Below, one piece after another: positions 6,431 through 44,916 of a DNA stretch of 64,000 nt. Position 1 is the stretch's first letter; each line of letters starts with the position of its first letter. The DNA is from a virus (Duplodnaviria > Caudoviricetes): the IMG/VR virus record IMGVR_UViG_2824233761_000002, positions 7,054 through 71,053 of that record, one strand, 5' to 3'. The notes below the pieces were generated by a model. It searched no databases and was not told the DNA's origin. It saw nothing but the letters and a program-made list of their open reading frames with translations. Both the position numbers and the translations under genes were made by a program.

Positions 6431-8331
6431 GCAGCCAGACGTTCCACACCCTCGACGTGCTCCGCCTCGAGGTCGAGCAGCCACCCGCCACCGGCCTGCG
6501 GAACCGGATCAAGAACCCCGACGGCGTCGGCGGCGGCTGGGGCTGGATCACCCCCCAGACGAACCAGAACATCGGCGGCCTGGTCGACGGCTCCGGCCCC
6601 TACCTGTCGTTCGCCTCGATGGACACGTTCATGCCCGGGGAGTTCGGGTCCGAGCCCATCCCCGCCCGGCCCGGCCAGTGGGTCAACTGGCGCGCCGAGG
6701 TCCGGTCCACCAACCGCAGCTACCAGATCGGCCTCCAGCACCTCAACGCCGACGGGACCGTCGTCGGTGGGTTCATGCTGCTGGCCTCTACCGCCACCGG
6801 CGTCCGGTCCGGGTCCGCACACCAGATCACCGACCCCACCGTCGTCGCCGTCCGCCTCCGCGCCTACCAGGTCGGCGGAGGCGCGCCGCCCTGGGGCTTC
6901 TCCTGGCGCAAGGCGATGGTCGCGGTCGAGGACACCAACACCGGCATGACCGGCATGGCCTACACCGAGACCCAGTGGGTCAACATCCTCGGCAAGTCCC
7001 ACAGCGTCCAGATCGAGCGGTCAGAGCTCAACCTCGGCATCCTCGCCGCGGTCGTCTACGACGCCGACCTCGACCCCGCCCAGGCCGGCGTCCACCTCGG
7101 CCAGGGCATCCGCGCCCACGCCCTCGTCGCAGGCTCCTGGGAGCCCCTGCACGTCGGGTCGCTGACCAACGCCCGCGCCGAGTACAACCCCCTGGCCACC
7201 GACGTCGACAAGCGCGCCAAGATCACCCTCACCGCCACCGACGCCGCCGGCACCCTGGGCCGGGTCCCGCGCCCCGACGGCGTGGCCACCATCCCCGACC
7301 TCATCGGCGTCCTGGAGGGCGCCGGAGTCCCGTGGAACATCAACGGCTCCACCAGCCAGCGGTTCCCCGGACCCACCGTCTCGACCAACCCCGACGCCCG
7401 CGCGATCGACCAGGTCGCGATCACCCGCGACACCGTCCACGGCTACGCCTGGATCTCCCGGGCCGGGGTGCTCACCGCCTGGGACGCCGACCAGCTCCCC
7501 ACCGGCGTGGCCGCGGTCCTCGACGAGGACGACATGACCGCCCTCTCGATCGACTACGACACCGACCGGTGTATCAACATCGTCACGGTCAAGTACCTCC
7601 GGCCGGGCGGCGAGGAGGTCACCTACGGCCCCTACGTCGACCAGGCCAGCCGCGAGCAGTGGGGCGAGCACACCGCCGAGTTCACCGTCCACGGCATCCC
7701 CGAGACCGAAGCCAACATGGCCGCGTTCGCCAACGCCGTGTTCGCCGCCAACGCCACACCCCAGCGGCGCGTCAACACCGTCACCCTCCCGGTCCGCACC
7801 CCGGCCGAGCTGCCCAAGACGCTGCTCGACCTCTACGACCTCGTCACCGTCCAGAACGCCGACCTCGACCTCGACCAGTCGATGCGGATCACCGGCGTGC
7901 GGCACCAGATCGCCACCGACCGATGGTCGGTCACCCTCGAGTTCGCCGCCCAGGGCGGGGTCGCACCGCCCCAGCAGACCCCATCAGCGGGCCCGACGGT
8001 GGCTGCCGGAGCGGGTGAGTGGGTCGCCGCGGCTCCGACGAACGGGTGGACCGGCGCGGTCTACTACAACGTCGCGGACGGCATGTGCACGGCGATCCTC
8101 GACCTGTTCAAGACGGCGTGGGGTGCCGAGGTCATGGCCCAGCTCCCACCAGGCGCCATCCCCAAACCGGCGTTGCCCGCGGGCATGTACTTCTACGGGC
8201 TGTCGCGGGACACCGGCGCGCAGGCGCCGTTCTGGGTGGGCGTCGGCGGTGACATCGGCTGTGTCTTCGGGTCCGCCGTCACTGGTGGCGGCGGGATCAC
8301 CGGAACCATCACCTACCCCGTGCGCCGATAA
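6427..8331 (+). CDS. Minor tail protein
   Basis: 634 aa directly after TMP; C-terminal GTITYPV tail-fibre-like end. Confidence 0.75.
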   Translation: MSSQTFHTLDVLRLEVEQPPATGLRNRIKNPDGVGGGWGWITPQTNQNIGGLVDGSGPYLSFASMDTFMPGEFGSEPIPARPGQWVNWRAEVRSTNRSYQIGLQHLNADGTVVGGFMLLASTATGVRSGSAHQITDPTVVAVRLRAYQVGGGAPPWGFSWRKAMVAVEDTNTGMTGMAYTETQWVNILGKSHSVQIERSELNLGILAAVVYDADLDPAQAGVHLGQGIRAHALVAGSWEPLHVGSLTNARAEYNPLATDVDKRAKITLTATDAAGTLGRVPRPDGVATIPDLIGVLEGAGVPWNINGSTSQRFPGPTVSTNPDARAIDQVAITRDTVHGYAWISRAGVLTAWDADQLPTGVAAVLDEDDMTALSIDYDTDRCINIVTVKYLRPGGEEVTYGPYVDQASREQWGEHTAEFTVHGIPETEANMAAFANAVFAANATPQRRVNTVTLPVRTPAELPKTLLDLYDLVTVQNADLDLDQSMRITGVRHQIATDRWSVTLEFAAQGGVAPPQQTPSAGPTVAAGAGEWVAAAPTNGWTGAVYYNVADGMCTAILDLFKTAWGAEVMAQLPPGAIPKPALPAGMYFYGLSRDTGAQAPFWVGVGGDIGCVFGSAVTGGGGITGTITYPVRR

Positions 8332-13495: not shown

Positions 13496-14995
13496 CTACC
13501 GCTCCCAGACGCCCTTCACCACAACGTCCGCGCGCGGCCGCCCCGTCCACACCCGCACCGGCCGGATCAAGTCACGCAGCACCTCCCGCCGGTGCTCCAC
13601 CGGCCGGTCATCCCACGACCCCAGCAGATCCTGCGCGATCCCCACCGGATCCGACGGCCCCCGCCGCGCCGACACCGCAGCGTCCTCATGCGCGGCCTGC
13701 AACTGATCCCGCTTCTCCACCAGGCCCGCCACCGTCTTGGCGTAGACCTCCGGCGGCAGCGGCGCCGACGCGTTCGACAGGGCCAGCTGCTGCAGCTCGG
13801 CATCGACGCGCGCGACAGCCCGGGCGAGTCGGTCCGCCTCCGACCTCGAGGCGGTGACGCGGGCCTCGGCAGCCAGGGCGACGTTGCGCCGCTCGTCGAC
13901 CTCGCCGGCGAGGTCGACGAGCCAGGCGTAGACCTTGTCCTCGACGTGCGACGCCATCACGTACCCGCCCTTGCACACGGCTGGGCCGATCTCCTTGCCG
14001 TTCTGGCACCGGTACTTGGGGACCCGATAGGCGCCGAACTGGCCGGCGACCATCGATCCTCCGCACCGACCGCAGCGGATCAACCCGGAGAGCAGGTACT
14101 GCGACCGGATCGTCCGGGCCGGCCTCGCAGCCCTGAGTCGCCGGGCGTCGAGGTATGCCTGCCACAGCTCTTGGTCGATGACGGGCTCGTGGACGCCAGG
14201 ATGCAGGGTCGGCTCGATCTTCCGGGCCCGGTCGCCGCCGGCGAGGAAGGACCCGGTCGCGAAGCCGGAGTCGAGGACGCGGCGCAGCGTACGGTCCGAC
14301 CACGGCCCGGGGTCCTTCTTCCCGTACCCACCGACGGTCAGGTGGCCATGAGCGTTGAGCCACCGCACCAGCTGGTAGACGGACTCGCCGGCGACGTAGC
14401 GGCGGTACATGTCCGCGAGGACGGGGGCGGTGACCGGATTAGGAACGTGGAGCTTCTTCTCGCGGTCGTAGACGTAGCCGAACCGATCTTTCCCGGTCGG
14501 CGGCCGGCCGGCGCGAACCCGTGAAGCGTGGACCTCCTTCCACACCTCCCCGATGCGCTCGGCCTCGAACGCCTGGAGCTCGGCGAGCATCCCGCGGGCG
14601 AGCCGGCCGCTCGAGGTGGTGGTGTCGAACTGCTCAGTGGCGGACTCGAGCCGGCCGCCGGCCTCTTCGACGCGGTCGATCGCGACGGCCCACCGGAGCC
14701 GGTGGCGTGCCGCGCGGGAGTACTTCCAGACGACGAGGACGTCGTACTCCCCCGCTTCGATGGCGGCGACGGCCTGGTCGAGGCGGGGCCACCAGGCGGA
14801 GCGGGCGCGGGATCCGGACTCGTCGATGCCTTCGAGCCAGCCGGCGATCTCGTAGCCGCGGGTGGCGGCATAGTCGATGATCGCGGTGCGCTGGACCTCC
14901 GGGGAGATCATCCCTTCACGTTCCTGGGAGACCCGCACGAGCCCGAGCGCCCTCGGTGGGGCTTCGGGGACGACGCGCAGCTGACGCCCGGTCAT
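13496..14995 (-). CDS. Large serine recombinase (integrase)
   Basis: LVRVSQ catalytic Ser; VWKYSRAAR; recombinase domain; LSGLIRCGRCG zinc ribbon; coiled coil. Confidence 0.95.
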   Translation of the reverse strand: MTGRQLRVVPEAPPRALGLVRVSQEREGMISPEVQRTAIIDYAATRGYEIAGWLEGIDESGSRARSAWWPRLDQAVAAIEAGEYDVLVVWKYSRAARHRLRWAVAIDRVEEAGGRLESATEQFDTTTSSGRLARGMLAELQAFEAERIGEVWKEVHASRVRAGRPPTGKDRFGYVYDREKKLHVPNPVTAPVLADMYRRYVAGESVYQLVRWLNAHGHLTVGGYGKKDPGPWSDRTLRRVLDSGFATGSFLAGGDRARKIEPTLHPGVHEPVIDQELWQAYLDARRLRAARPARTIRSQYLLSGLIRCGRCGGSMVAGQFGAYRVPKYRCQNGKEIGPAVCKGGYVMASHVEDKVYAWLVDLAGEVDERRNVALAAEARVTASRSEADRLARAVARVDAELQQLALSNASAPLPPEVYAKTVAGLVEKRDQLQAAHEDAAVSARRGPSDPVGIAQDLLGSWDDRPVEHRREVLRDLIRPVRVWTGRPRADVVVKGVWER

Positions 14996-15053
14996 TGCAG
15001 CGACGACGACCCGGCTACGGCGGATCGGTCCGCCACCCAACCCCGCGACCGAC

Positions 15054-15275
15054 TCATGCCGTCTCGTCCTCGTCGGCGGACTCGAACAGCCGATGGAGGT
15101 ACTCCTCGTGGTTGGCATACCGCATGCCGACGACCACGCCCTGCCCGATGATCCCGATGCCCCCGACGATGCTCGCGAGCACCAAGATGACGGTGCCGAT
15201 CGCTTGACCGTCCTCGGCTGCTGCGATGAGCCCACCGAGGATAGTCAGACCCACGCCAACGTAGATGTACGTCAT
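15054..15275 (-). CDS. Small two-TM membrane protein
   Basis: MTYIYVGVGLTILGGLIAA...VILVLASIVGGIGIIG; typical int-adjacent membrane gene. Confidence 0.6.
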   Translation of the reverse strand: MTYIYVGVGLTILGGLIAAAEDGQAIGTVILVLASIVGGIGIIGQGVVVGMRYANHEEYLHRLFESADEDETA

Positions 15276-36226: not shown

Positions 36227-36297
36227 CAAGCGTGAACCTCTTGTTGTCTCATTCCCTCAAGAACCCGTATGCCCAGACACTGGCGCAGCGGGTTCTT
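36223..36297 (+). promoter_or_regulatory. Putative late promoter with downstream hairpin
   Basis: TTGACA at ~36224-36229; AAGAACCCG...CGGGTTCTT stem at 36259-36297, just before terL. Confidence 0.45.
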
Positions 36298-36337
36298 GTG
36301 CGTCAGGAGTAGATCACGCGAGGTAGGTGACCACCTC

Positions 36338-37939
36338 GTGTCCACCGCCGCCCGTGACGACCTCTGGATCGACTTCCTCGAAGACGGCCTCGTCGGCCTC
36401 CGCGGCCGCGACCCCGACCCCGCCGACACCGGCGCCCCGGTCAAGACCTGGACCACGCCCGGCGAGCTCGCCCGCGACCTCGACCCCACCACCCGCCAGA
36501 CCCCCGCACTCGACGCCATCGACTCCGCTCTGGTGGACGTCGACGCAGGCCGATGCGACCGGCTGATCATCACGATGCCCCCGCAGGAGGGGAAGACCAC
36601 CCGCGTCAAGGCCGGCGTGCTGTGGATGATGACCCGCAACAAGCGCCGCCGCGTCGTCGCCGTCTCCTACGGCAAGGACCTCGCGATCGAGTTCGGCCGC
36701 GACGTCCGGTCCTGGATCACCACCTCGACCGGCGTCGACGGCGCCGCGAACCTCGGGATCCGCATCGCACGCGACAACGGGTCCGTCTCGAACTGGACCC
36801 TCGAAGGGCACCGCGGCGGCCTCCGCAGCGTCGGCATCGGCGGCGGCATCACCGGCCGGCCCGCCGACGTGATGGTCATCGACGACCCGATCAAGAACCG
36901 CGAGGAAGCGGACTCCGAGGTCTACCGCGCGAAGGTCCAGCGGTACTGGACCAGCACGCTGTCCACCCGCCTGGCCCCCGGCGCGCCGGTGATCGTGATC
37001 CTCACCCGCTGGCACGAGGAAGACCTCGCCGGGTGGCTGCTGAAGCGGCCCGACGGGCACCGGTGGCGGGTCGTGAACATCCCGGCCCAGGCCGACCACG
37101 ACCCGAACGCCGGCGAGACCGACATCCTGGGGCGCGAGCCGGGCGAGTACATGGTCTCGGCGCGGATCGACGAGCGCACCGGACAGCCCCGCACCGCGAA
37201 GGACTGGGAGCAGATCAAGGTCCAGGCCGGGTCGGCGGACTGGGAGTCGCTGTACCAGGGCAACCCGTCCCCGCCGTCGGGCAACATCGTGCACCGCGAC
37301 TGGTGGAAGTACTACGCGAGCCCGTTGTGGATCGTCCGCGATGACGGTGCGCACATCGTGACCGAGTACGACGTGATGCTGATGTCGTGGGATATGGCGT
37401 TCAAGGACACCGACGCCTCCGACTACGTCGTCGGGCAGGTCTGGATGCGCCGGGGCGCCCGGGCGTACCTGCTCGACCAGGTCCGCGGCCGGATGTCGTT
37501 CGTCGAGACCCGGCGCCGGTTCAAGTCGTTCGCCGCGAAGTGGCCCCAGGCGATCGCGAAGCTGGTCGAGGACAAGGCCAACGGCACGGCGGTCATCAAC
37601 AGCCTCGAGATGACGGTCGGCGGGATCATCCCCGAGGACCCCGGGAACAAGGGGAAGTCGGCGCGGCTGCAGGCGGTCTCGCCGTTCATCGAGGCCGGGA
37701 ACGTGTGGCTCCCGGATCCGGCGCTGCTCAACCCCTCGACCGGTGAGCCGTGGGCGCCGTGGGTGGACGGGTTCGTCGAGGAGCACGCCGCGTTCCCGTC
37801 CGGGTCGAACGATGACCAGGTCGACGCGGACTCGCAGGCGCTGAACCGGCTGCTGCTGCAGCCGCTGCTAACCGGCGAGACGTACGACGAGGACGACCTC
37901 GACGACGAGCTGGCGGACTACGCGATCAGCCACTGGTGA
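36338..37939 (+). CDS. terL: Terminase large subunit
   Basis: MPPQEGKT Walker A, VIDDPIK Walker B, ILTRWHEEDLAG, SWDMA, VEDKANG, NDDQVDA. Confidence 0.95.
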   Translation: MSTAARDDLWIDFLEDGLVGLRGRDPDPADTGAPVKTWTTPGELARDLDPTTRQTPALDAIDSALVDVDAGRCDRLIITMPPQEGKTTRVKAGVLWMMTRNKRRRVVAVSYGKDLAIEFGRDVRSWITTSTGVDGAANLGIRIARDNGSVSNWTLEGHRGGLRSVGIGGGITGRPADVMVIDDPIKNREEADSEVYRAKVQRYWTSTLSTRLAPGAPVIVILTRWHEEDLAGWLLKRPDGHRWRVVNIPAQADHDPNAGETDILGREPGEYMVSARIDERTGQPRTAKDWEQIKVQAGSADWESLYQGNPSPPSGNIVHRDWWKYYASPLWIVRDDGAHIVTEYDVMLMSWDMAFKDTDASDYVVGQVWMRRGARAYLLDQVRGRMSFVETRRRFKSFAAKWPQAIAKLVEDKANGTAVINSLEMTVGGIIPEDPGNKGKSARLQAVSPFIEAGNVWLPDPALLNPSTGEPWAPWVDGFVEEHAAFPSGSNDDQVDADSQALNRLLLQPLLTGETYDEDDLDDELADYAISHW

Positions 37940-37996: not shown

Positions 37997-39652
37997 GTGA
38001 CTGCGGTGACGCTCGTCGAGACCACCCCCGAACCGTCGTACGACGACCTCGTCGTCGAGCTCGGCGCCGTGCGCGAGTGGAACGGCGTCCTCGAAGAGGC
38101 AATCTCCGACCTCGAGCTCGCCGCCGACGAACGCGGCTGGCGGCTCGCCTCGATGCAGCTCGAGCAGGAGTTCTCCCGCCAGGGCCTCGAGCGGATCGTG
38201 GAGAACTGCCGCGTCGCCGCTATCGCCTCGCCGCTGATCAAGCGCGGCATGAAGCTCCGCGTCGGCTACGTGTGGTCCCAGGGCGTGTCCGTGCAGGCGC
38301 GGGCCGGCGAGGCGGAGGCCGCGAAGGGCGGCCAGGACGTCAACGCGGTCGTGCAGGCTTTCTGGGATGACCAGTCCAACCAGGTCTCCCTGACCTCGTC
38401 CGAGGCGGCCGAGACCAACGAGTGGGGGCTCGGCACCGACGGCCAGATCGTGTTCGCGTTCTTCACCGACCCACTCACCGGCCGCGTGCAGGTCCGCACC
38501 ACGCCGTTCCAGGAGATCACCGACAAGATCTCCAACCCGAACGACCGCGACGAGGTGTGGTTCTACGCCCGCTCCTACACGGTCCGCGTGATCGAGCCCG
38601 GCTACTCCGGCCTGACCCGGTCCAGGGTGGAGACCCGCCGGGTGCTGCACCCCGACCTGCGGTTCTGGCCGGCGCAGCGGCCGAAGAGCATCGACGGGAT
38701 CCCGGTGCTGTGGGACCAGCCGCTGCTGCACGTGACGGTGAACCGGCCGGCGCACTGGAAGTGGGGCATCCCGGACGTCTACGCGGCGCTGCCGTGGGCG
38801 CGGGCGTACGAGGGGATCCTGACCGACTGGGCGAAGCTGGTGAAGGCCCTGTCGAAGTTCGCGTGGCGGCTCACCGGCGACCGGTCCAGCAAGGCGCGGC
38901 GGGCGGCGGAGAAGCTCGCGCACGCGCTCCCCACGCGCATCGACGCCGACGCGGCGCTGCTCGGCGCCGGCACCGTCGGCGACGTCGCCGCGATGGGCCC
39001 GGGCGTGAACCTCGAGGCCATCCCGAAGTCCGGGGCGACCATCGACGCCGACGCCGGGAAGCCGCTCGCCAGCCTCGTGGCCGCGGCGCTCGGGGTCTCG
39101 GTGGTCGACCTGCTCGCCGACCCGGGCGTCACCGGGGCGCGCGCGGTCGCCGAGACGATGGACAAGGGCATCGTCGGGGAGATGAACCTGCGCCGCGCGA
39201 CGTGGCGGTCGGTCATCCAGACCATCACGACCTACGTGATCGAGCAGGCCGTCCGGGCGCCGCGCGGGCCACTGTCCGGGACGGTGGTGCGGGACCCGCG
39301 GACCGGGGTGGAGACCATCACCCTGGCCGGCGGCACCGAGTCGACGGTCGAGGTCGTGTTCCCCGACCTCAACGAGCTGGACCCGGTGAAGCTCGTCGGG
39401 GCGATCGTCGAGGCCGACTCCACCGGGAAGCTCGGCACGCCGCGGCTGGTCGCGCAGCTGCTGATGCGGGCGCTGCAGGTCGACGACGTCGACGAGCTGC
39501 TCGACGCGATGTTCGACGAGGACGGCCAGTGGCTGCCGGGGATGGACCCCGCGCCCCGCTCCCGCACCGCGGGCGAGGAGCTGCTGCGGCGTCACGACCG
39601 CGGCGAGGACCCGCTCGACGACCCCGACGGCGGGCCCGAGGACGAGCAGTAG
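37997..39652 (+). CDS. Portal protein
   Basis: 551 aa directly after terL; SPLIKRG; KWGIPD motif. Confidence 0.85.
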   Translation: MTAVTLVETTPEPSYDDLVVELGAVREWNGVLEEAISDLELAADERGWRLASMQLEQEFSRQGLERIVENCRVAAIASPLIKRGMKLRVGYVWSQGVSVQARAGEAEAAKGGQDVNAVVQAFWDDQSNQVSLTSSEAAETNEWGLGTDGQIVFAFFTDPLTGRVQVRTTPFQEITDKISNPNDRDEVWFYARSYTVRVIEPGYSGLTRSRVETRRVLHPDLRFWPAQRPKSIDGIPVLWDQPLLHVTVNRPAHWKWGIPDVYAALPWARAYEGILTDWAKLVKALSKFAWRLTGDRSSKARRAAEKLAHALPTRIDADAALLGAGTVGDVAAMGPGVNLEAIPKSGATIDADAGKPLASLVAAALGVSVVDLLADPGVTGARAVAETMDKGIVGEMNLRRATWRSVIQTITTYVIEQAVRAPRGPLSGTVVRDPRTGVETITLAGGTESTVEVVFPDLNELDPVKLVGAIVEADSTGKLGTPRLVAQLLMRALQVDDVDELLDAMFDEDGQWLPGMDPAPRSRTAGEELLRRHDRGEDPLDDPDGGPEDEQ

Positions 39653-39661
39653 CCGCCGGCG

Positions 39662-41314
39662 ATGGCGAGCAGGCGTGAGACCCGGCGCCTGCAGCGTCAG
39701 CTCGACGCGCAGCTGCGGAGGCTGACCGATCAGGTCGAGCGGGACCTGATCCGTGCGTGGGCGATGGCGTGGGACGAGACGTCGACGGACCTGACGGCGC
39801 TGCTGGTCGACCTGCTGACCGCCGGCGAGCAGGTCACCGTGGCCCAGCTGCTGATGGCGACCCGGCTGCGGCGGGCGCTGGCCGAGGTCGCCGACCGGCT
39901 GGAGCGGCTCACGGCGTACGCCGGCGTCCGGGTCACCCAGGATCTGCGGCGCGTGGTCGACATGGCCGGCGGCGCGCAGGCCTCGATCATCGACTCCCAG
40001 CTCCCCTCGGGCAGCGGCTTGGTCGACCTGGAGTCGTGGGCGCGTGTCGACCCGCGGCAGGTCGAGGCGATCGTGGCCAGGTCGACGCAGCAGATCACCT
40101 CGCGGATGCGGCCGGTGTCGGCGTCGGCGTACGACGTGATGCGGCGCGAGCTGATCCGTGGCGTGGTCTCCGGGTCGAACCCGAGGGTCGTTGCGCGGCG
40201 GATGGTGGCCCGGGCGCGGGAGCCGTTCGCTGGCGGGCTGACGCGGGCGCTGACGATCGCGCGGACCGAGATGCTCGACGCGCACCGGGCCGGCGCCCGG
40301 GCCGGGCAGGCGCGGCACGCCGAGGTCCTGCGGGGCTGGATGTGGCTCGCGTCGCTGTCCACGCGGACCTGCCCGGCGTGCCTGGGCATGCACGGGCAGG
40401 TGTTCGACCTCGACGTGCCGGGCCCGGACGGTCACCAGAACTGCCGGTGCGCGCGGATGCCCGTTGTGCGGCCGTGGACCGAGCTCGGGTTCGACGGGAT
40501 CGAGGAGCCGGGCCCGTTGGCGCCGGACGCGGACGGGTTCTTCGCCGGGCTGACCCCGCGGGAGCAACAGGCGATCCTCGGGCCGCGTGGCTACCAGGCG
40601 TGGCTGGCGGGCCGGTGGCCGCGGTCGAAGTGGGGCGTACGTCGCTCGAACGACGGGTGGCGGGACTCGGTGGTGCCCGGGAAGCCGCCGCGGCTGCCGG
40701 GCGGGACCGCTGGGCGGCCGCCGCTTCCGCCGGCTCGCGCGCCGCGCGGGCTCGACGACGATCCGGCCCAGCGCGCGGCGGACGCGATCATCGCGCGGGC
40801 GACGAACGCCGAGCCCGCGGTGACGAAGCTCGTTCAGGAGGTCGCAGCCACCGCGGGCGGGCGGCTGGAGCGGCTGGAGTTCCGGCTGAAGAGTCGGGCG
40901 TCGATCGTCGACAAGCTCACCCGCCCCGGCGTCGACCTCGCGGAGGCCGCCGAGAAGATCAAGGACTCGCTGCGCTACACGATCGTGATCCCGCGGCGGA
41001 AGTACGCGCGCGGCGGGCAGAGCGCCCGCGACGCGCTGGCCGAGGCCGGGTACGTGCTCGTCAAGTCACCGGCCGGCTGGCCCGGGGCGGGCTACCGCGG
41101 CGTCAACCTCGCTGTGCGGGCGCCCGACGGGACCGTGTTCGAGGTGCAGCTCCACACCGCCGCGAGCCTGCGCGCCGCCGAGGCCGCACACCTGATCTAC
41201 GAGGAGCAGCGGCGTCTGCCAGTCGGATCGAAGCGGTGGCTGGAGCTGGAGGCGGAGATGGCGAAGATCTTCAACTCGGTGCCCTGGCCGCCCGGCCTGC
41301 CGCGGATAGACTGA
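39662..41314 (+). CDS. MuF-like minor head protein fused to a RelA/SpoT-like (SAS) toxin domain
   Basis: MuF: TIARTEM, WLASLSTRTCPAC..MHG, HQNCRC; C-terminus: RLKSRASIVDK, DSLRY, GYRGVN, FEVQLHT. Confidence 0.85.
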   Translation: MASRRETRRLQRQLDAQLRRLTDQVERDLIRAWAMAWDETSTDLTALLVDLLTAGEQVTVAQLLMATRLRRALAEVADRLERLTAYAGVRVTQDLRRVVDMAGGAQASIIDSQLPSGSGLVDLESWARVDPRQVEAIVARSTQQITSRMRPVSASAYDVMRRELIRGVVSGSNPRVVARRMVARAREPFAGGLTRALTIARTEMLDAHRAGARAGQARHAEVLRGWMWLASLSTRTCPACLGMHGQVFDLDVPGPDGHQNCRCARMPVVRPWTELGFDGIEEPGPLAPDADGFFAGLTPREQQAILGPRGYQAWLAGRWPRSKWGVRRSNDGWRDSVVPGKPPRLPGGTAGRPPLPPARAPRGLDDDPAQRAADAIIARATNAEPAVTKLVQEVAATAGGRLERLEFRLKSRASIVDKLTRPGVDLAEAAEKIKDSLRYTIVIPRRKYARGGQSARDALAEAGYVLVKSPAGWPGAGYRGVNLAVRAPDGTVFEVQLHTAASLRAAEAAHLIYEEQRRLPVGSKRWLELEAEMAKIFNSVPWPPGLPRID

Positions 41315-41318
41315 GACC

Positions 41319-41531
41319 ATGCGGTACTGGCGGACCCCCCTCGTGAGCGGTGGCCATCTGTACGCGCGCACGTATCCCAGCGGCTACCGGGCCGATCGGA
41401 AGTCCCCAGGCGGCGACTGGGTCCGCGACGACTACCTGTGGTCGGAGATCCGGAACACCGGCGAGTGGGAGCCCGCCGCGGCCGCTGAGGTCGCGGCGTT
41501 CGAGGCTGCCCGGCTCGCGGCTGCGTCCTGA
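41319..41531 (+). CDS. Candidate immunity protein of the MuF toxin
   Basis: 70-aa ORF 4 nt after the toxin stop; aromatic/acidic. Confidence 0.55.
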   Translation: MRYWRTPLVSGGHLYARTYPSGYRADRKSPGGDWVRDDYLWSEIRNTGEWEPAAAAEVAAFEAARLAAAS

Positions 41532-41550: not shown

Positions 41551-41724
41551 CTAGAGCGGCGGCCGGCGGGGGTCGTCGCCGGCTGACGGCATGTAGGCCG
41601 TCGCGTCGCACCACTCACACTTCTCGACCATCGCGAGCCCGCCACGCCCGCCGGGCGCGAGCTCGGCGAGCACGAAGTTGTGCGCGCCCGTCGGCGACGT
41701 GCACTCGCCGTCGTCGTATCCCAC
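41551..41724 (-). CDS. Small antisense zinc-binding protein
   Basis: TAGCGT 7 nt before GTG (leaderless); C..H..CEWC motif. Confidence 0.4.
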   Translation of the reverse strand: MGYDDGECTSPTGAHNFVLAELAPGGRGGLAMVEKCEWCDATAYMPSAGDDPRRPPL

Positions 41725-41769
41725 CCGCCGCACGCTACCCGCCATGCCCTCGACAAGGGAGGTCCCGTC

Positions 41770-43068
41770 ATGCCCAAGCTCGTCCAGGAGACCGGCCGCA
41801 TCACCGAGGCCGCCGTCGCCGCGGCGAAGAAGACCGGCCGCCTCCCCGTCCAGCTCGTCTCCCCCGGGATGGGCTCGTCCGGCTACTACTCCGCCGAGGT
41901 CCTCGAGCAGGCCGTCACCGACGGCCTGTTCCCCGCCGGGATGCAGATGTTCGCCGACCACCCCACCGCTGAGGAGGCCAAGGCCCGCCCCGTGCGGTCG
42001 ATCAAGGACCTCGTCTCGGTCAGCGTCACCGAGGCCCGGATCGCGACCGACGACGACGTCGCATCGTGGGGCGCCGACCCGGGCGCCGTGGTCACCGAGG
42101 CCGACATCGCTCCGGCCTGGCGCGACCTGGTCGAGAACTTCTCGACCGCGATCGGGCTCTCGATCCGCGGCGACGGCGAGCTGGCCGAGGGCGTCATCGA
42201 CGGGAAGCAGACCAAGATCGTCGAGTCCCTGGTGCACATCCAGTCCACCGACTGGGTCACCCGGGCCGGCCGCGGCGGGAAGGTCCTCTCCCTCGTCGAG
42301 TCCGCTCGCGCGAACGCCCGCGCGATCGAGCACGGCATCGACGAGGCCACCGTCAACGACACCCGCGAGGCCCTGCAGACCGCGCTCCGCGACGCATACG
42401 CGGCCGCCGACCGCGTCTGGGTGTACGTCCGCGACTTCGACGAGTCGACCGTCTGGTTCGAGATCGAAGGCGCGGGCGCCGGCGACAACGCCGGCACCTA
42501 CGGCCAGGCGTACGCCACCGCGAGCAACGGCGCGATCGCGCTGTCCGGGACGCGCACCGAGGTGCGGGTCCAGACCCAGTTCGTCCCGGTCACCCGGCCG
42601 GGCAGCACCACACCCACCACCGAGGAGTCCGAGGAGGACACCATGGGCAAGATCCAGCTCGAGGAGGCGGAGCACTCCGCGCTCACCGAGAAGGCCGGCC
42701 GGGTGGACGCTCTCCTGGAGGAGAACGCGACCCTGAAGGCCGAGAACACCTCCCTCAAGGAGGCCGACGCCACGCGCACGCGGAACGCGCGCGCCGGCGA
42801 GATCGTCGAAGCGCGCGCCAAGGAGGCTGGCGTCTCCTACTCGCCGCTCGAGGTCAAGGGCCTGTGCGTCGACCTCCCGGTGACGGAGGACGGCGCGCTC
42901 GACGAGGCGGCGTTCACGAAGGCCGTCGACGAGGACGCCGCGGGCCGGAAGGCCGCTGGCGGCGCCGGCAAGGTCATCGGGCACGGCGGGGCACCGTCCG
43001 GCGGCGGCACCGTCACGTGGGCGGAGATCGACGAGGCCGCAGGCCTCAGTGAGAAGAAGGGGGCCTGA
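41770..43068 (+). CDS. Capsid maturation protease / scaffold
   Basis: MFADHPT, IGLSIRG, STDWVTRAGRGG; helical scaffold-like C-terminus. Confidence 0.8.
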   Translation: MPKLVQETGRITEAAVAAAKKTGRLPVQLVSPGMGSSGYYSAEVLEQAVTDGLFPAGMQMFADHPTAEEAKARPVRSIKDLVSVSVTEARIATDDDVASWGADPGAVVTEADIAPAWRDLVENFSTAIGLSIRGDGELAEGVIDGKQTKIVESLVHIQSTDWVTRAGRGGKVLSLVESARANARAIEHGIDEATVNDTREALQTALRDAYAAADRVWVYVRDFDESTVWFEIEGAGAGDNAGTYGQAYATASNGAIALSGTRTEVRVQTQFVPVTRPGSTTPTTEESEEDTMGKIQLEEAEHSALTEKAGRVDALLEENATLKAENTSLKEADATRTRNARAGEIVEARAKEAGVSYSPLEVKGLCVDLPVTEDGALDEAAFTKAVDEDAAGRKAAGGAGKVIGHGGAPSGGGTVTWAEIDEAAGLSEKKGA

Positions 43069-43070
43069 TC

Positions 43071-43475
43071 ATGGCCAAGAACTGCATCCTCGCCCCGACC
43101 GAGCCGGCCCGGGTCCTCCCGGTCCCCGCCGGCACGGTCTCCGGGGCACCGGTGAAGGTCGGCGGGTTCGTCGGCGTCGCCGCGGCCGACCGCGCCGACG
43201 CCGCCACGAAGAAGGGCGCCGTGGGCTGCCCCGACGGGTACGCCCCGGTCGAGGTCACCGGCCTGTGGGAGGTCAAGGTCCCCGAGGTCGTCGCCGCGGC
43301 CGGCACCGCGATCTACATCAAGGCCGACCAAACCCTCACCACCACCGCGACCGACAACACCCTGTTCGGTCACACCGAGCCCATCATCCAGCGCGGCGTC
43401 CCCATCGGCGCGACCAAGGTCGTCGACTCCGGCGGCGTACAGGGCACCGTCTACGTCCGTCCCGTGAAGGTCTGA
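43071..43475 (+). CDS. Capsid decoration (DUF2190-like) protein
   Basis: VSGAPVKVGGFVGVA, VTGLWEV, AGTAIY. Confidence 0.75.
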   Translation: MAKNCILAPTEPARVLPVPAGTVSGAPVKVGGFVGVAAADRADAATKKGAVGCPDGYAPVEVTGLWEVKVPEVVAAAGTAIYIKADQTLTTTATDNTLFGHTEPIIQRGVPIGATKVVDSGGVQGTVYVRPVKV

Positions 43476-43487
43476 GGAGGCCCCGCG

Positions 43488-44618
43488 ATGAACATGTCCC
43501 TTCTCGAGATCGCCGAGTCGATCTCCCAGGAGACCTCCGGCACCACGCCGGCGTCCTACCGGCGCCGCCTCGAGGCCCGCCCGGGCCTGATGGAGACCGC
43601 GCTCGGCATGGCCAAGCTCATCGGCCACTACCGCGAGGGCTCCTCGCGGGCCGCGCTGGAGATCAACGAGGCCCTCACCACCAGCGACCTGGCGCAGTAC
43701 GCGTCCGGGATGCTGATCGACCGGGAGATCCAGCAGAACTACCCGGCGCTGCCCACGCAGTGGCCGAAGTTCCTGACCCCGACCACGGTGAAGGACTTCA
43801 AGCCGAAGTACATGAGCGAGCTCGTGCTCGGCGCGCAGGTCTTCAAGGATGTCCCGGAGCGGACCGGCTATCCGATGGCGAAGGGCCCGCGGCTCGCGGA
43901 GTACCCGATCAGCGCGAAGAAGACCGGTCTGATGTACGGCTGGTCGTTCGAGGCGCGGATCAACGACGACCTCGACCAGTTGCTGATGGTGCCGAACGCG
44001 TTCCCGCAGATGGCGGTGGACACCGAGGACGACCGTGGCCTGCGGCTGCTGATCAACCTGGAGACCGGTGCGCTGAACACCGGCTTCTTCAACGCCGGGA
44101 ACGGCAACGTCGGCACCCTGAAGCTGAACCCGACGAACCTGCAGACGGTCGTGACGTCGCTGCGGACGAAGCGGGATCCCGACACCGGCACGATCATCCC
44201 GTCGGGTCGGCTGCAGCTGGTGGTCGGCTACGCCCTGGAGGCGGAGGCCGAGCGGATCCTCGCGGCGGAGAAGCTGCTGGTCTCCGACGGGAACGGCGGC
44301 TACCGCGAGGAGCCGAACCCGCTGCGCGGCAAGGTCGACCTGGTCGTGAACGAGAAGCAGCTCGGTGAGTCGTGGATCGTGATGCCGAAGCCGGGCACCG
44401 CGATCCGGGCGCCGTTCTGGTTCGCGAAGCTCCGCGGCTACGAGTCGCCGGACTTCCGCTACAAGGCGGACGGCGGCCGGTCGATGGGCGGCGGGGACGT
44501 CGTGGCCACGGAGGGGTCGTTCGACGACGACACCGTGTGGTTCCGCGGCCGGCACATCATGGGCGCCGCGCACGGCGACCCGACGCTGACCTACGGGTCC
44601 GACAACAGCGGCGTCTGA
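43488..44618 (+). CDS. Major capsid protein (Mu gpT-like)
   Basis: EALTTSDL, VKDFKP, SFEARINDDL; position after scaffold and cement genes. Confidence 0.85.
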   Translation: MNMSLLEIAESISQETSGTTPASYRRRLEARPGLMETALGMAKLIGHYREGSSRAALEINEALTTSDLAQYASGMLIDREIQQNYPALPTQWPKFLTPTTVKDFKPKYMSELVLGAQVFKDVPERTGYPMAKGPRLAEYPISAKKTGLMYGWSFEARINDDLDQLLMVPNAFPQMAVDTEDDRGLRLLINLETGALNTGFFNAGNGNVGTLKLNPTNLQTVVTSLRTKRDPDTGTIIPSGRLQLVVGYALEAEAERILAAEKLLVSDGNGGYREEPNPLRGKVDLVVNEKQLGESWIVMPKPGTAIRAPFWFAKLRGYESPDFRYKADGGRSMGGGDVVATEGSFDDDTVWFRGRHIMGAAHGDPTLTYGSDNSGV

Positions 44619-44628
44619 GGAGGACGGC

Positions 44629-44916
44629 ATGGCTGAGAAGAAGATCGAGGGTCGGCACCTGCTGACGGAGAAGGACTTCCGTGAGGTCGTCGGCCCGGAC
44701 GGCGAGGAGCTGCCGTCGGTGCCGAAGCACTGGGGCGAGGACCAGCTCGCGCCGGGCGCGAAGTTCAAGGCGAGGTCCGGGCGGTCCAGCGGCTCCGGCT
44801 CGTCGGGCTCGGGCGGCAGCGGCAGCACGGGCGCCACCGGGGCGACCGGCGCCACCGGCGCGACCGGGGCGACCGGCGCCACCGGCTCGTCGGGCTCGGG
44901 CGGCAGCGGCAGCTGA
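44629..44916 (+). CDS. Small virion protein with (GAT)n / Gly-Ser tail
   Basis: RBS GGAGG; C-terminal TGATGATGATGATGATGATG flanked by GSSGSGGSGS. Confidence 0.7.
   Translation: MAEKKIEGRHLLTEKDFREVVGPDGEELPSVPKHWGEDQLAPGAKFKARSGRSSGSGSSGSGGSGSTGATGATGATGATGATGATGSSGSGGSGS

Follow-up and report, generated by a model that had tools for sequence, protein, structure and literature searches.

The 64,000-nucleotide (nt) stretch of DNA analysed here, hereafter the window, covers positions 7,054 to 71,053 of the IMG/VR virus record IMGVR_UViG_2824233761_000002. Within the head module of a prophage, it encodes a MuF head protein that ends in a small alarmone synthetase (SAS) domain, and the next gene encodes a protein of 70 amino acids (aa), P0002. 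This gene pair is quite probably a cassette of the MuF polymorphic toxin type, carried by a temperate siphovirus of Nocardioides and composed of an alarmone-synthetase toxin and an IapK/Tis1-like immunity protein. The locus is a new and fairly ordinary example of the known MuF polymorphic toxin, or Apk2-IapK, class. Its additional features are modest: the Nocardioides host, from a group that has been sampled little, a synthetase domain of a distinct clade, and an immunity protein that is linked to IapK by profile methods only. All positions are those of the window and refer to the plus strand unless the minus strand is given; L, P and G numbers are the locus, protein and genome labels of this analysis, and L001 is a metagenomic contig. 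The cassette is composed of the following features.

39662-40690, plus strand: MuF / SPP1-gp7-like core, residues 1-343, identified by PF04233 and TIGR01641

40691-40765, plus strand: proline-rich linker, residues 344-368, the junction at which C-terminal domains are swapped among homologues

40766-41314, plus strand: putative SAS (RelA/SpoT SYNTH) toxin domain, residues ~369-550 with the stop codon, identified by sequence, profile and fold

41319-41531, plus strand: P0002, the 70-aa IapK/Tis1-like candidate immunity protein, identified by GC content at third codon positions (GC3), the ratio of nonsynonymous to synonymous substitution rates (dN/dS), fold, context and hhalign

The open reading frame (ORF) at 39662-41314 has a stop-free translation of 550 aa and is one continuous gene, since its GC3 is 0.95 in both halves. 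The N-terminal MuF / SPP1 gp7 domain is identified by Pfam Phage_Mu_F (PF04233) at residues 160-264, with an E value of 2.4e-13 and 51 bits (cut-off 29.6), and by TIGR01641 (phageSPP1_gp7) with 43.2 bits, above the cut-off of 39.65. An earlier note on this DNA, made from the letters alone, had described a MuF domain followed by synthetase motifs, a 70-aa ORF beginning 4 nt downstream and an actinobacterial phage setting, and the analysis bears out all of these. Both MuF models score above their cut-offs, and the motifs RLKSRASIVDK, DSLRY, GYRGVN and FEVQLHT are all present. The small ORF at 41319-41531 starts 4 nt past the TGA of the MuF gene, and the surrounding gene order is that of a head module in a Nocardioides prophage.

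The C-terminal domain is apparently an active synthetase, as all of its catalytic residues are intact. The PDB entry 8vx3 ('SaSAS', the same protein as SaEAS) matches the domain with an E value of 2e-19 from the single sequence and 2.4e-55 with a 29-sequence profile, and the NCBIfam XopAD model (NF041399) matches residues 353-549 over its C-terminal ~200 positions with an E value of 4e-30. The AlphaFold model of residues 361-550 has a mean predicted local distance difference test (pLDDT) score of 95.3, with lower confidence only in the N-terminal ~10 residues. The top homolog of this model provided by Foldseek is 8vx3 (template modelling (TM) score 0.78-0.81, 35% identity), followed by Tas1 (TM 0.63) and then RelQ and RelP; CapRel (TM 0.51, E 1e-4) is ranked under all of these. 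Across 29 relatives, residues D435, R438, Y439, G480, N482, E494, Q496, H498 and T499 are invariant, and the SYNTH domain carries its catalytic motifs intact, as in Apk2. Residue D435 aligns with an alanine of 8vx3, a crystal form in which SaEAS carries the inactivating D121A mutation (PMC12691689). Comparison of the synthetase domain with that of L001 gives a dN/dS of 0.36, which indicates purifying selection.

The ORF at 41319-41531 is a real gene. Its GC3 is 0.87 and is high in its own frame only, and comparison with the 81%-identical homologue in L001 gives a dN/dS of 0.19, where the two shifted frames give 2.8 and 1.5. The structural model of P0002 reaches a pLDDT of 92.7 from only six sequences and is composed of four short strands and two helices. 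P0002 does not belong to any family in Pfam, PHROG or NCBIfam. With 70 aa and a start 4 nt past the stop codon of the MuF gene, it has the size and placement of the ~65-90-aa proteins that directly follow synthetase toxins in IapK/Tis1-like systems. A sigma-70 consensus scan around the small ORF, a method poorly suited to actinobacteria, identified no internal promoter or terminator, and a hairpin between the two ORFs is no more stable than in shuffled sequence (z 0.56).

The P0002 family is closely associated with the synthetase domain. When 1.8 billion cluster representatives, which represent ~15 billion proteins, were searched exhaustively with a profile, six P0002 matches and four credible clusters of relatives were returned; a word-based search returned two close homologues only. 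Two long repeat proteins with DUF7034 and FG-GAP domains (P0130 and P0131) were considered as relatives and rejected as spurious, their match being confined to a short stretch. All P0002 relatives with a readable context directly follow a relative of this synthetase domain at a distance of 1-14 nt, and they do so in four settings: behind a MuF-fused, a VG15-like-fused, a free-standing 188-aa and a free-standing 231-aa synthetase, the last length being that of the stop-to-stop frame. In L001, the relative directly follows a MuF-SAS protein that is 83% identical to that of the window. In L043 it follows the free-standing 188-aa synthetase (55% identical), and in L044 a post-portal protein of 459 aa, which has the same C-terminal domain behind an N-terminus that is weakly VG15-like. 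The contig of P0128 exhibits the same arrangement with a truncated upstream ORF. Of 401 Nocardioidaceae genomes, 11 contain relatives of the synthetase domain and 8 contain P0002-like ORFs. Both genes are present, in adjacent positions, in two further genomes (G274 and G302), and the other Nocardioidaceae synthetase loci have a small ORF of the IapK superfamily downstream.

P0002-like ORFs (E 3e-10 to 2e-4) are also present in five genomes of one sister genus, at L061, L063, L064 and L065 (genomes G300, G262, G268 and G368) and in G226. No synthetase domain is located within 1.5 kb of these ORFs in the four of the five genomes that were checked, and the neighbouring ORFs do not belong to any Pfam family. 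These genes could be orphan immunity genes that guard against a virion-borne toxin.

The cassette occupies a polymorphic slot. Homologues of the MuF core number in the hundreds, share 55-68% identity and come mainly from Nocardioides. The majority are ~353 aa long without an extension, and a minority of 468-628 aa carry extensions of the CdiA_C, Gln_amidase, SAS or unknown types. Conservation among the homologues runs to the motif GWRDSxVPxxPP at about residue 343, with divergence beyond, and in an alignment of P0001, P0005, P0036 and P0040 similarity is lost at the linker. P0040, from the truncated contig L002, is a MuF protein with a glutamine-deamidase toxin domain. The variable, toxin-bearing C-terminal extension that marks MuF polymorphic toxins is present here, and the small downstream ORF occurs only together with a toxin domain and covaries with it. 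The fillings of the slot are as follows.

L057: MuF protein without a C-terminal domain, no plus-strand small ORF

L058: C-terminal domain CdiA_C, downstream small ORF of 105 aa

L059: C-terminal domain of unknown type, downstream small ORF of 64 aa

L003: C-terminal domain of another unknown type, downstream small ORF of 88 aa

Window and L001: C-terminal domain SAS, downstream small ORF of 70 aa

Because each filling has its own ORF between the same flanks, the C-terminal domain and the small ORF move together as a cassette, and such co-movement is what defines polymorphic toxin-immunity systems (PMC5576092, PMC3482391). By its gene content, the locus is a classic swappable slot for predicted toxin-immunity pairs. 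Its right-hand boundary is formed by one further ORF outside the cassette.

41551-41745, minus strand: conserved 64-aa ORF with a C...H...CxxC pattern, identified by a GC3 of 0.92 and by homologues

Homologues of this ORF (53-61 aa) are located at the same position in L001, L003, L057, L058 and L059, followed in each by the scaffold gene. The ORF belongs to no Pfam family; it separates the MuF slot from the scaffold gene and runs antisense to the late head operon that contains it. It was considered as an immunity gene and rejected, as it is kept whatever the C-terminal domain of the MuF protein, including in the MuF-only L057.

The family of the candidate immunity protein was approached through IapK, which blocks Apk2 by occluding its acceptor site (PMC12226406). 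In Apk2 phages, the iapK gene directly follows apk2 and precedes the gene for the HD hydrolase Aph1; the IapK protein has 69 aa in phage IPP34 of S. pneumoniae and 72 aa in the phages of Mannheimia and Pasteurella. BLAST separates the small ORFs behind 40 synthetase loci into many apparently unrelated families; these ORFs nevertheless have a collinear pattern of an N-terminal [KR]-Y-[YWF], a central W-[VI]-x-D and a C-terminal E-[IV]-[ST]-E-x-E-A. In hhalign comparisons, the P0002 family matches a set of 18 SAS-downstream ORFs with 94.5% probability (E 7.6e-8, 63 of 70 columns) and, after removal of two IapK rows, the remaining 16 ORFs with 95.2% probability (E 2.7e-8, 63 columns). The five IapK proteins of Apk2 phages match the same 16 ORFs with 90.3% probability (E 1.5e-6, 63 columns), and controls with reversed, 20 column-shuffled and unrelated families give E values of 0.07-0.8 and scores of 6-12. 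P0002 is therefore placed by transitive evidence in a broad putative IapK/Tis1-like superfamily of small immunity proteins, because both it and IapK match the intermediate set of SAS-downstream ORFs. The earlier note had considered the immunity family unassignable by eye; profile-profile comparison with controls resolves this in part and puts P0002 among the IapK/Tis1-like set. The P0002 model has no Foldseek match in PDB at E<0.2, and the Atlas contains three unnamed clusters of 66-72-aa Bacillota proteins with TM scores of 0.59-0.65 to it. Searches with this predicted structure are neutral and would neither support nor exclude the IapK/Tis1-like placement.

No Aph1-type hydrolase accompanies the cassette: the slot holds the 70-aa ORF only, and the sole match to PF13328 (HD_4) in the whole genome is a long Rel protein on contig 3. 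Aph1 is variable as a second immunity gene in the Apk2 family, and its absence agrees with the variation already described for the class (PMC10083569).

Several results weigh against the identification of the gene pair as a MuF toxin with an IapK/Tis1-like immunity protein. The Pfam RelA_SpoT model matches residues 408-516 with only 21 bits (E 4e-4), under its gathering cut-off of 27; the identity of the synthetase domain is secure despite this because of the matches to 8vx3 and XopAD. In the phylogeny described below, the domain is located outside the Apk2 clade. Direct comparison of the P0002 family with IapK by hhalign is weak (2-3% probability, E 0.013-0.03), and the alignment is collinear over 63 columns in the comparison with five IapK proteins. 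The structural match of the P0002 model to Tis1 (6ox6 chain B) by VIA-align is not significant, at rank 34 with a Z score of 2.8 and a root-mean-square deviation of 3.7 over 55 residues. The sigma-70 scan, ill-suited to actinobacteria, found no promoter from which a lysogen would express the immunity gene. Finally, the packaging and delivery of any MuF toxin are still open in the literature (PMC10083569, PMC5576092).

By analogy with the characterised systems, we infer toxicity, an alarmone product, physical binding of the two proteins, and packaging and delivery by the virion. The MuF-SAS fusion would be made late in infection, and its synthetase domain would move pyrophosphate from ATP onto the 3'-OH of a purine nucleotide. 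With the very high turnover typical of the clade, ATP and ADP (or GTP and GDP) would be drained, and (p)ppApp and/or (p)ppGpp would flood the cell and stop its growth. The translationally coupled 70-aa protein would bind the toxin domain and block the acceptor-nucleotide site, which would shield the virion-assembling cell and probably lysogens too. The toxin would be packaged via its MuF part and would act in the next cell entered, either a new host or non-immune competitors. SPP1 gp7-type MuF proteins are present in the head in low copy number, bind both the portal and DNA, and are thought to exit with the DNA (PMC10083569, PMC5576092).

It is also conceivable, with a rather low probability, that the enzyme is used on the phage's own host for metabolic shutdown, lysis-lysogeny bias or superinfection exclusion, with the small protein serving as a timer or off-switch. 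Jamet et al. proposed these alternatives for MuF toxins (PMC5576092), and they agree with the bacteriostatic, not bactericidal, action of the Bacteroides Apk2 (PMC10083569) and with the position of the gene pair inside the late head operon, where the consensus scan found no separate promoter or terminator. The fast swapping of unrelated toxins in the slot (CdiA_C nuclease-type, glutamine deamidase and SAS) fits an arms-race weapon better, and the fusion of the same SAS clade to a type VII secretion system (T7SS) signal domain in L070 represents an interbacterial delivery route.

The branch of the enzyme was examined with a maximum-likelihood tree of 40 synthetase domains. The domain of the window falls within an actinobacterial clade (support 100/96) together with L001, L043, L044, the free-standing mycobacterial pairs L004 and L005, L006 and L026. 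Five Apk2 or Apk2-like sequences from Streptococcus and Pasteurellaceae phages form the Apk2 clade (support 100/100). The clade of the window is also apart from the SaEAS-like group, and the branching order among the clades is unresolved in this tree.

The acceptor of the enzyme bears on a second alternative, in which the domain is a pyrophosphokinase of the tRNA 3'-CCA end, of the CapRel, PhRel or FaRel2 type, that blocks translation, and the small protein is a type II antitoxin. This is a slightly less probable explanation than use on the phage's own host. The free-standing relatives L004, L005 and L062 from mycobacteria and Nocardioidaceae (189-231 aa) resemble toxic SAS (toxSAS) toxin-antitoxin pairs, with a small ORF of ~73 aa beside the synthetase in L004 and L005, and CapRel is detectable by fold at the TM score and E value given above. 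CapRel is nevertheless far lower in rank than the nucleotide-acting SaEAS and Tas1, the nearest solved enzymes by sequence and fold, and has no sequence match at E<1. A tblastn search of 50,697 phage records identified no Mycobacterium phage record at E<=1e-5; PhRel of Mycobacterium phage Phrann, which is named as a tRNA-acting toxSAS (PMC12691689), is therefore not a close relative. The partner protein also groups with IapK-like proteins, which are occluders of the nucleotide acceptor site. A nucleotide acceptor is favoured over tRNA on these comparisons, because CapRel is much more distant than SaEAS and Tas1, the phage records searched yielded no close relative of the PhRel type and the partner is predicted to be IapK-like.

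The alarmone synthetase of the predicted cassette cannot be assigned a product from its sequence, as the earlier note had also held. Among the characterised relatives, (p)ppApp is the sole product of Apk1 and Apk2 and (p)ppGpp that of AaEAS and VpEAS; SaEAS produces both alarmones and prefers guanine acceptors (PMC12691689). As the domain is located outside the Apk2 clade, the product of Apk2 is not transferable to it. The product is not callable because the domain belongs to a clade of its own, separate from both Apk2 and SaEAS, and because swapping the syn motifs left the specificity of Apk2 unchanged (PMC12226406). One tentative possibility is that the MuF toxin, whose domain belongs to this third, uncharacterised actinobacterial clade, may produce (p)ppGpp, either by itself or alongside (p)ppApp. 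Such a product is conceivable because the two characterised actinobacterial exported synthetases, SaEAS and AaEAS, accept guanine nucleotides. If true, it would be the first guanosine alarmone toxin found on a head protein, and 'MuF-SAS' would not be synonymous with Apk2.

The same synthetase module is found on other carriers. It is fused to VG15 (PF25310; E 3e-50 in L019) in the IMG/VR contigs L019-L021 and L039, and to a weakly VG15-like N-terminus in L068 of Nocardioidaceae. In L070, also of Nocardioidaceae, a member of the same synthetase clade is fused to a T7SS_signal domain (PF21725, E 1e-26). A small ORF of the IapK superfamily follows each of the fusions in L019-L021, L039, L068 and L070. 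In L006 (3254-4531), from an uncultured Actinomycetota, the synthetase is in one open frame with a complete RecR (Toprim and RecR_ZnF); this is an odd fusion or, alternatively, an artefact of reading through when the ORF was extended.

The weakest explanation regards the C-terminal domain as a remnant without activity and the 70-aa ORF as a chance frame of the kind that high-GC genomes yield in number. It would agree with the sub-threshold Pfam match but is extremely improbable and is effectively refuted already by the selection and co-occurrence data: the catalytic residues are intact, the domain has a dN/dS of 0.36 and the small ORF one of 0.19, against ratios >1 in the shifted frames, the GC3 is frame-specific, the P0002 fold is confident from six sequences, and the P0002 homologues are kept next to SAS domains in unrelated contexts.

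The prophage that carries the cassette is ~47 kb long, is of the serine-integrase type and is located inside a 2.1-Mb chromosomal contig of a genome of 5.8 Mb in total with 72% GC. The Rel protein of this genome clusters at 90% identity with those of named Nocardioides species, which identifies the host as a Nocardioides, a soil bacterium. The genes of the prophage that frame the cassette are as follows.

13496-15235, minus strand: serine integrase

36269-37939, plus strand: large terminase, start of the head/packaging module (PHROG 38, E 6e-98)

37997-39652, plus strand: portal, immediately 5' of the MuF gene (PHROG 10963, E 1e-99)

41770-43068, plus strand: next head gene, scaffold / maturation-protease-like (PHROG 15531 head maturation protease, E 1e-21)

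An RDF-like protein, an exonuclease and DnaB are encoded between the integrase and the terminase, and the scaffold/protease-like gene is followed by genes for a decoration protein, the major capsid protein (43488) and the tape measure protein (48926). The mechanical ORF of the scaffold/protease-like gene begins with a GTG at 41680, and the likely true start is the ATG at 41770 (MPKLVQ...); this start is favoured because the GC3 of the frame rises only past ~41720 and because the longer frame overlaps the conserved minus-strand ORF. On this gene order, the element is a temperate siphovirus prophage with the MuF gene in its canonical post-portal place, and the cassette has the location expected of a MuF polymorphic toxin, in the head/packaging module of a temperate phage.

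Two side observations concern the relatives of the prophage and its host. The Microcystis phage MinS1 (MZ923504) exhibits 77.5% nucleotide identity with the prophage over 2.2 kb of the scaffold-capsid region (42546-44764) and 57.6% protein identity with the MuF core, which is surprising for an assignment to a cyanobacterial host given a high-GC Nocardioides prophage. The same host genome also codes for a protein that combines DUF429 with a RelA_SpoT domain (59-64 bits) and is at least 769 aa long, which is unrelated to the prophage toxin and is seen at two contig ends, L047 (G000 contig 6, 62871-66215) and L048 (end of contig 22).

The closest known systems are the Apk2-IapK(-Aph1) MuF modules in prophages of Bacteroides caccae, S. 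pneumoniae, Mannheimia haemolytica and Pasteurella multocida (PMC10083569, PMC12226406). MuF toxins, RelA-like ones included, were described in 2017 by Jamet et al. (PMC5576092), and Apk2, IapK and Aph1 were characterised in 2023-2025 (PMC10083569, PMC12226406). As in the Apk2-IapK modules, the MuF gene of the window directly follows the portal gene, the SAS domain is C-terminal, a gene for ~70 aa comes next and the phage is temperate. The SAS domain differs in being only ~33-36% identical to Apk2 domains and in forming a separate clade, and there is no adjacent Aph1 hydrolase as in Apk2-IapK-Aph1. The name 'adenosine 3'-pyrophosphokinase', which is used for Apk2, is consequently not yet applicable to the domain of the window. 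A 2025 survey lists 39 MuF-linked synthetases, 'primarily' from Streptococcus (PMC12691689); unlike these published sets, the window has a high-GC actinobacterial host.

SaEAS of Streptomyces albidoflavus (8vx3) is the best match by sequence and structure and has the same catalytic residues. It carries a Sec signal peptide, has no MuF domain and no adjacent immunity gene, and acts outside the cell (PMC12691689), whereas the protein of the window has a MuF carrier, no signal peptide and an immunity-type gene next to it. The Tas1/Apk1-Tis1 pair of the Pseudomonas aeruginosa type VI secretion system (T6SS; 6ox6) likewise consists of a delivered toxin with the SYNTH fold and a small occluding immunity protein, Tis1, which is 76 aa in the crystal and close in size to P0002. 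Tas1 differs in its PAAR/T6SS carrier, and the toxins are only 21% identical. With the XopAD/skwp type III effectors (NF041399), the protein shares the terminal Rel-like domain only; their N-terminal carrier consists of SKWP repeats delivered by the type III secretion system, and the setting is entirely different. The published survey counts XopAD/skwp as a further carrier of the same synthetase module (PMC12691689).

This locus does not alter the MuF toxin class as currently understood. The divergent small proteins behind alarmone-synthetase toxins, P0002 and IapK among them, appear to form one superfamily that is visible to profile methods only, and the product of this synthetase branch would help to map the determinants of adenine versus guanine specificity. 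MuF toxins are well catalogued in Firmicutes and Pasteurellaceae, and their packaging and purpose are standing questions. In one Nocardioides phage lineage, an empty slot and at least five predicted toxin-immunity fillings are located between the same two flanking genes. This clean natural series would therefore be well suited to the study of how MuF toxins are packaged and delivered, and of how specific their immunity is, in a soil actinobacterium that is not a pathogen.

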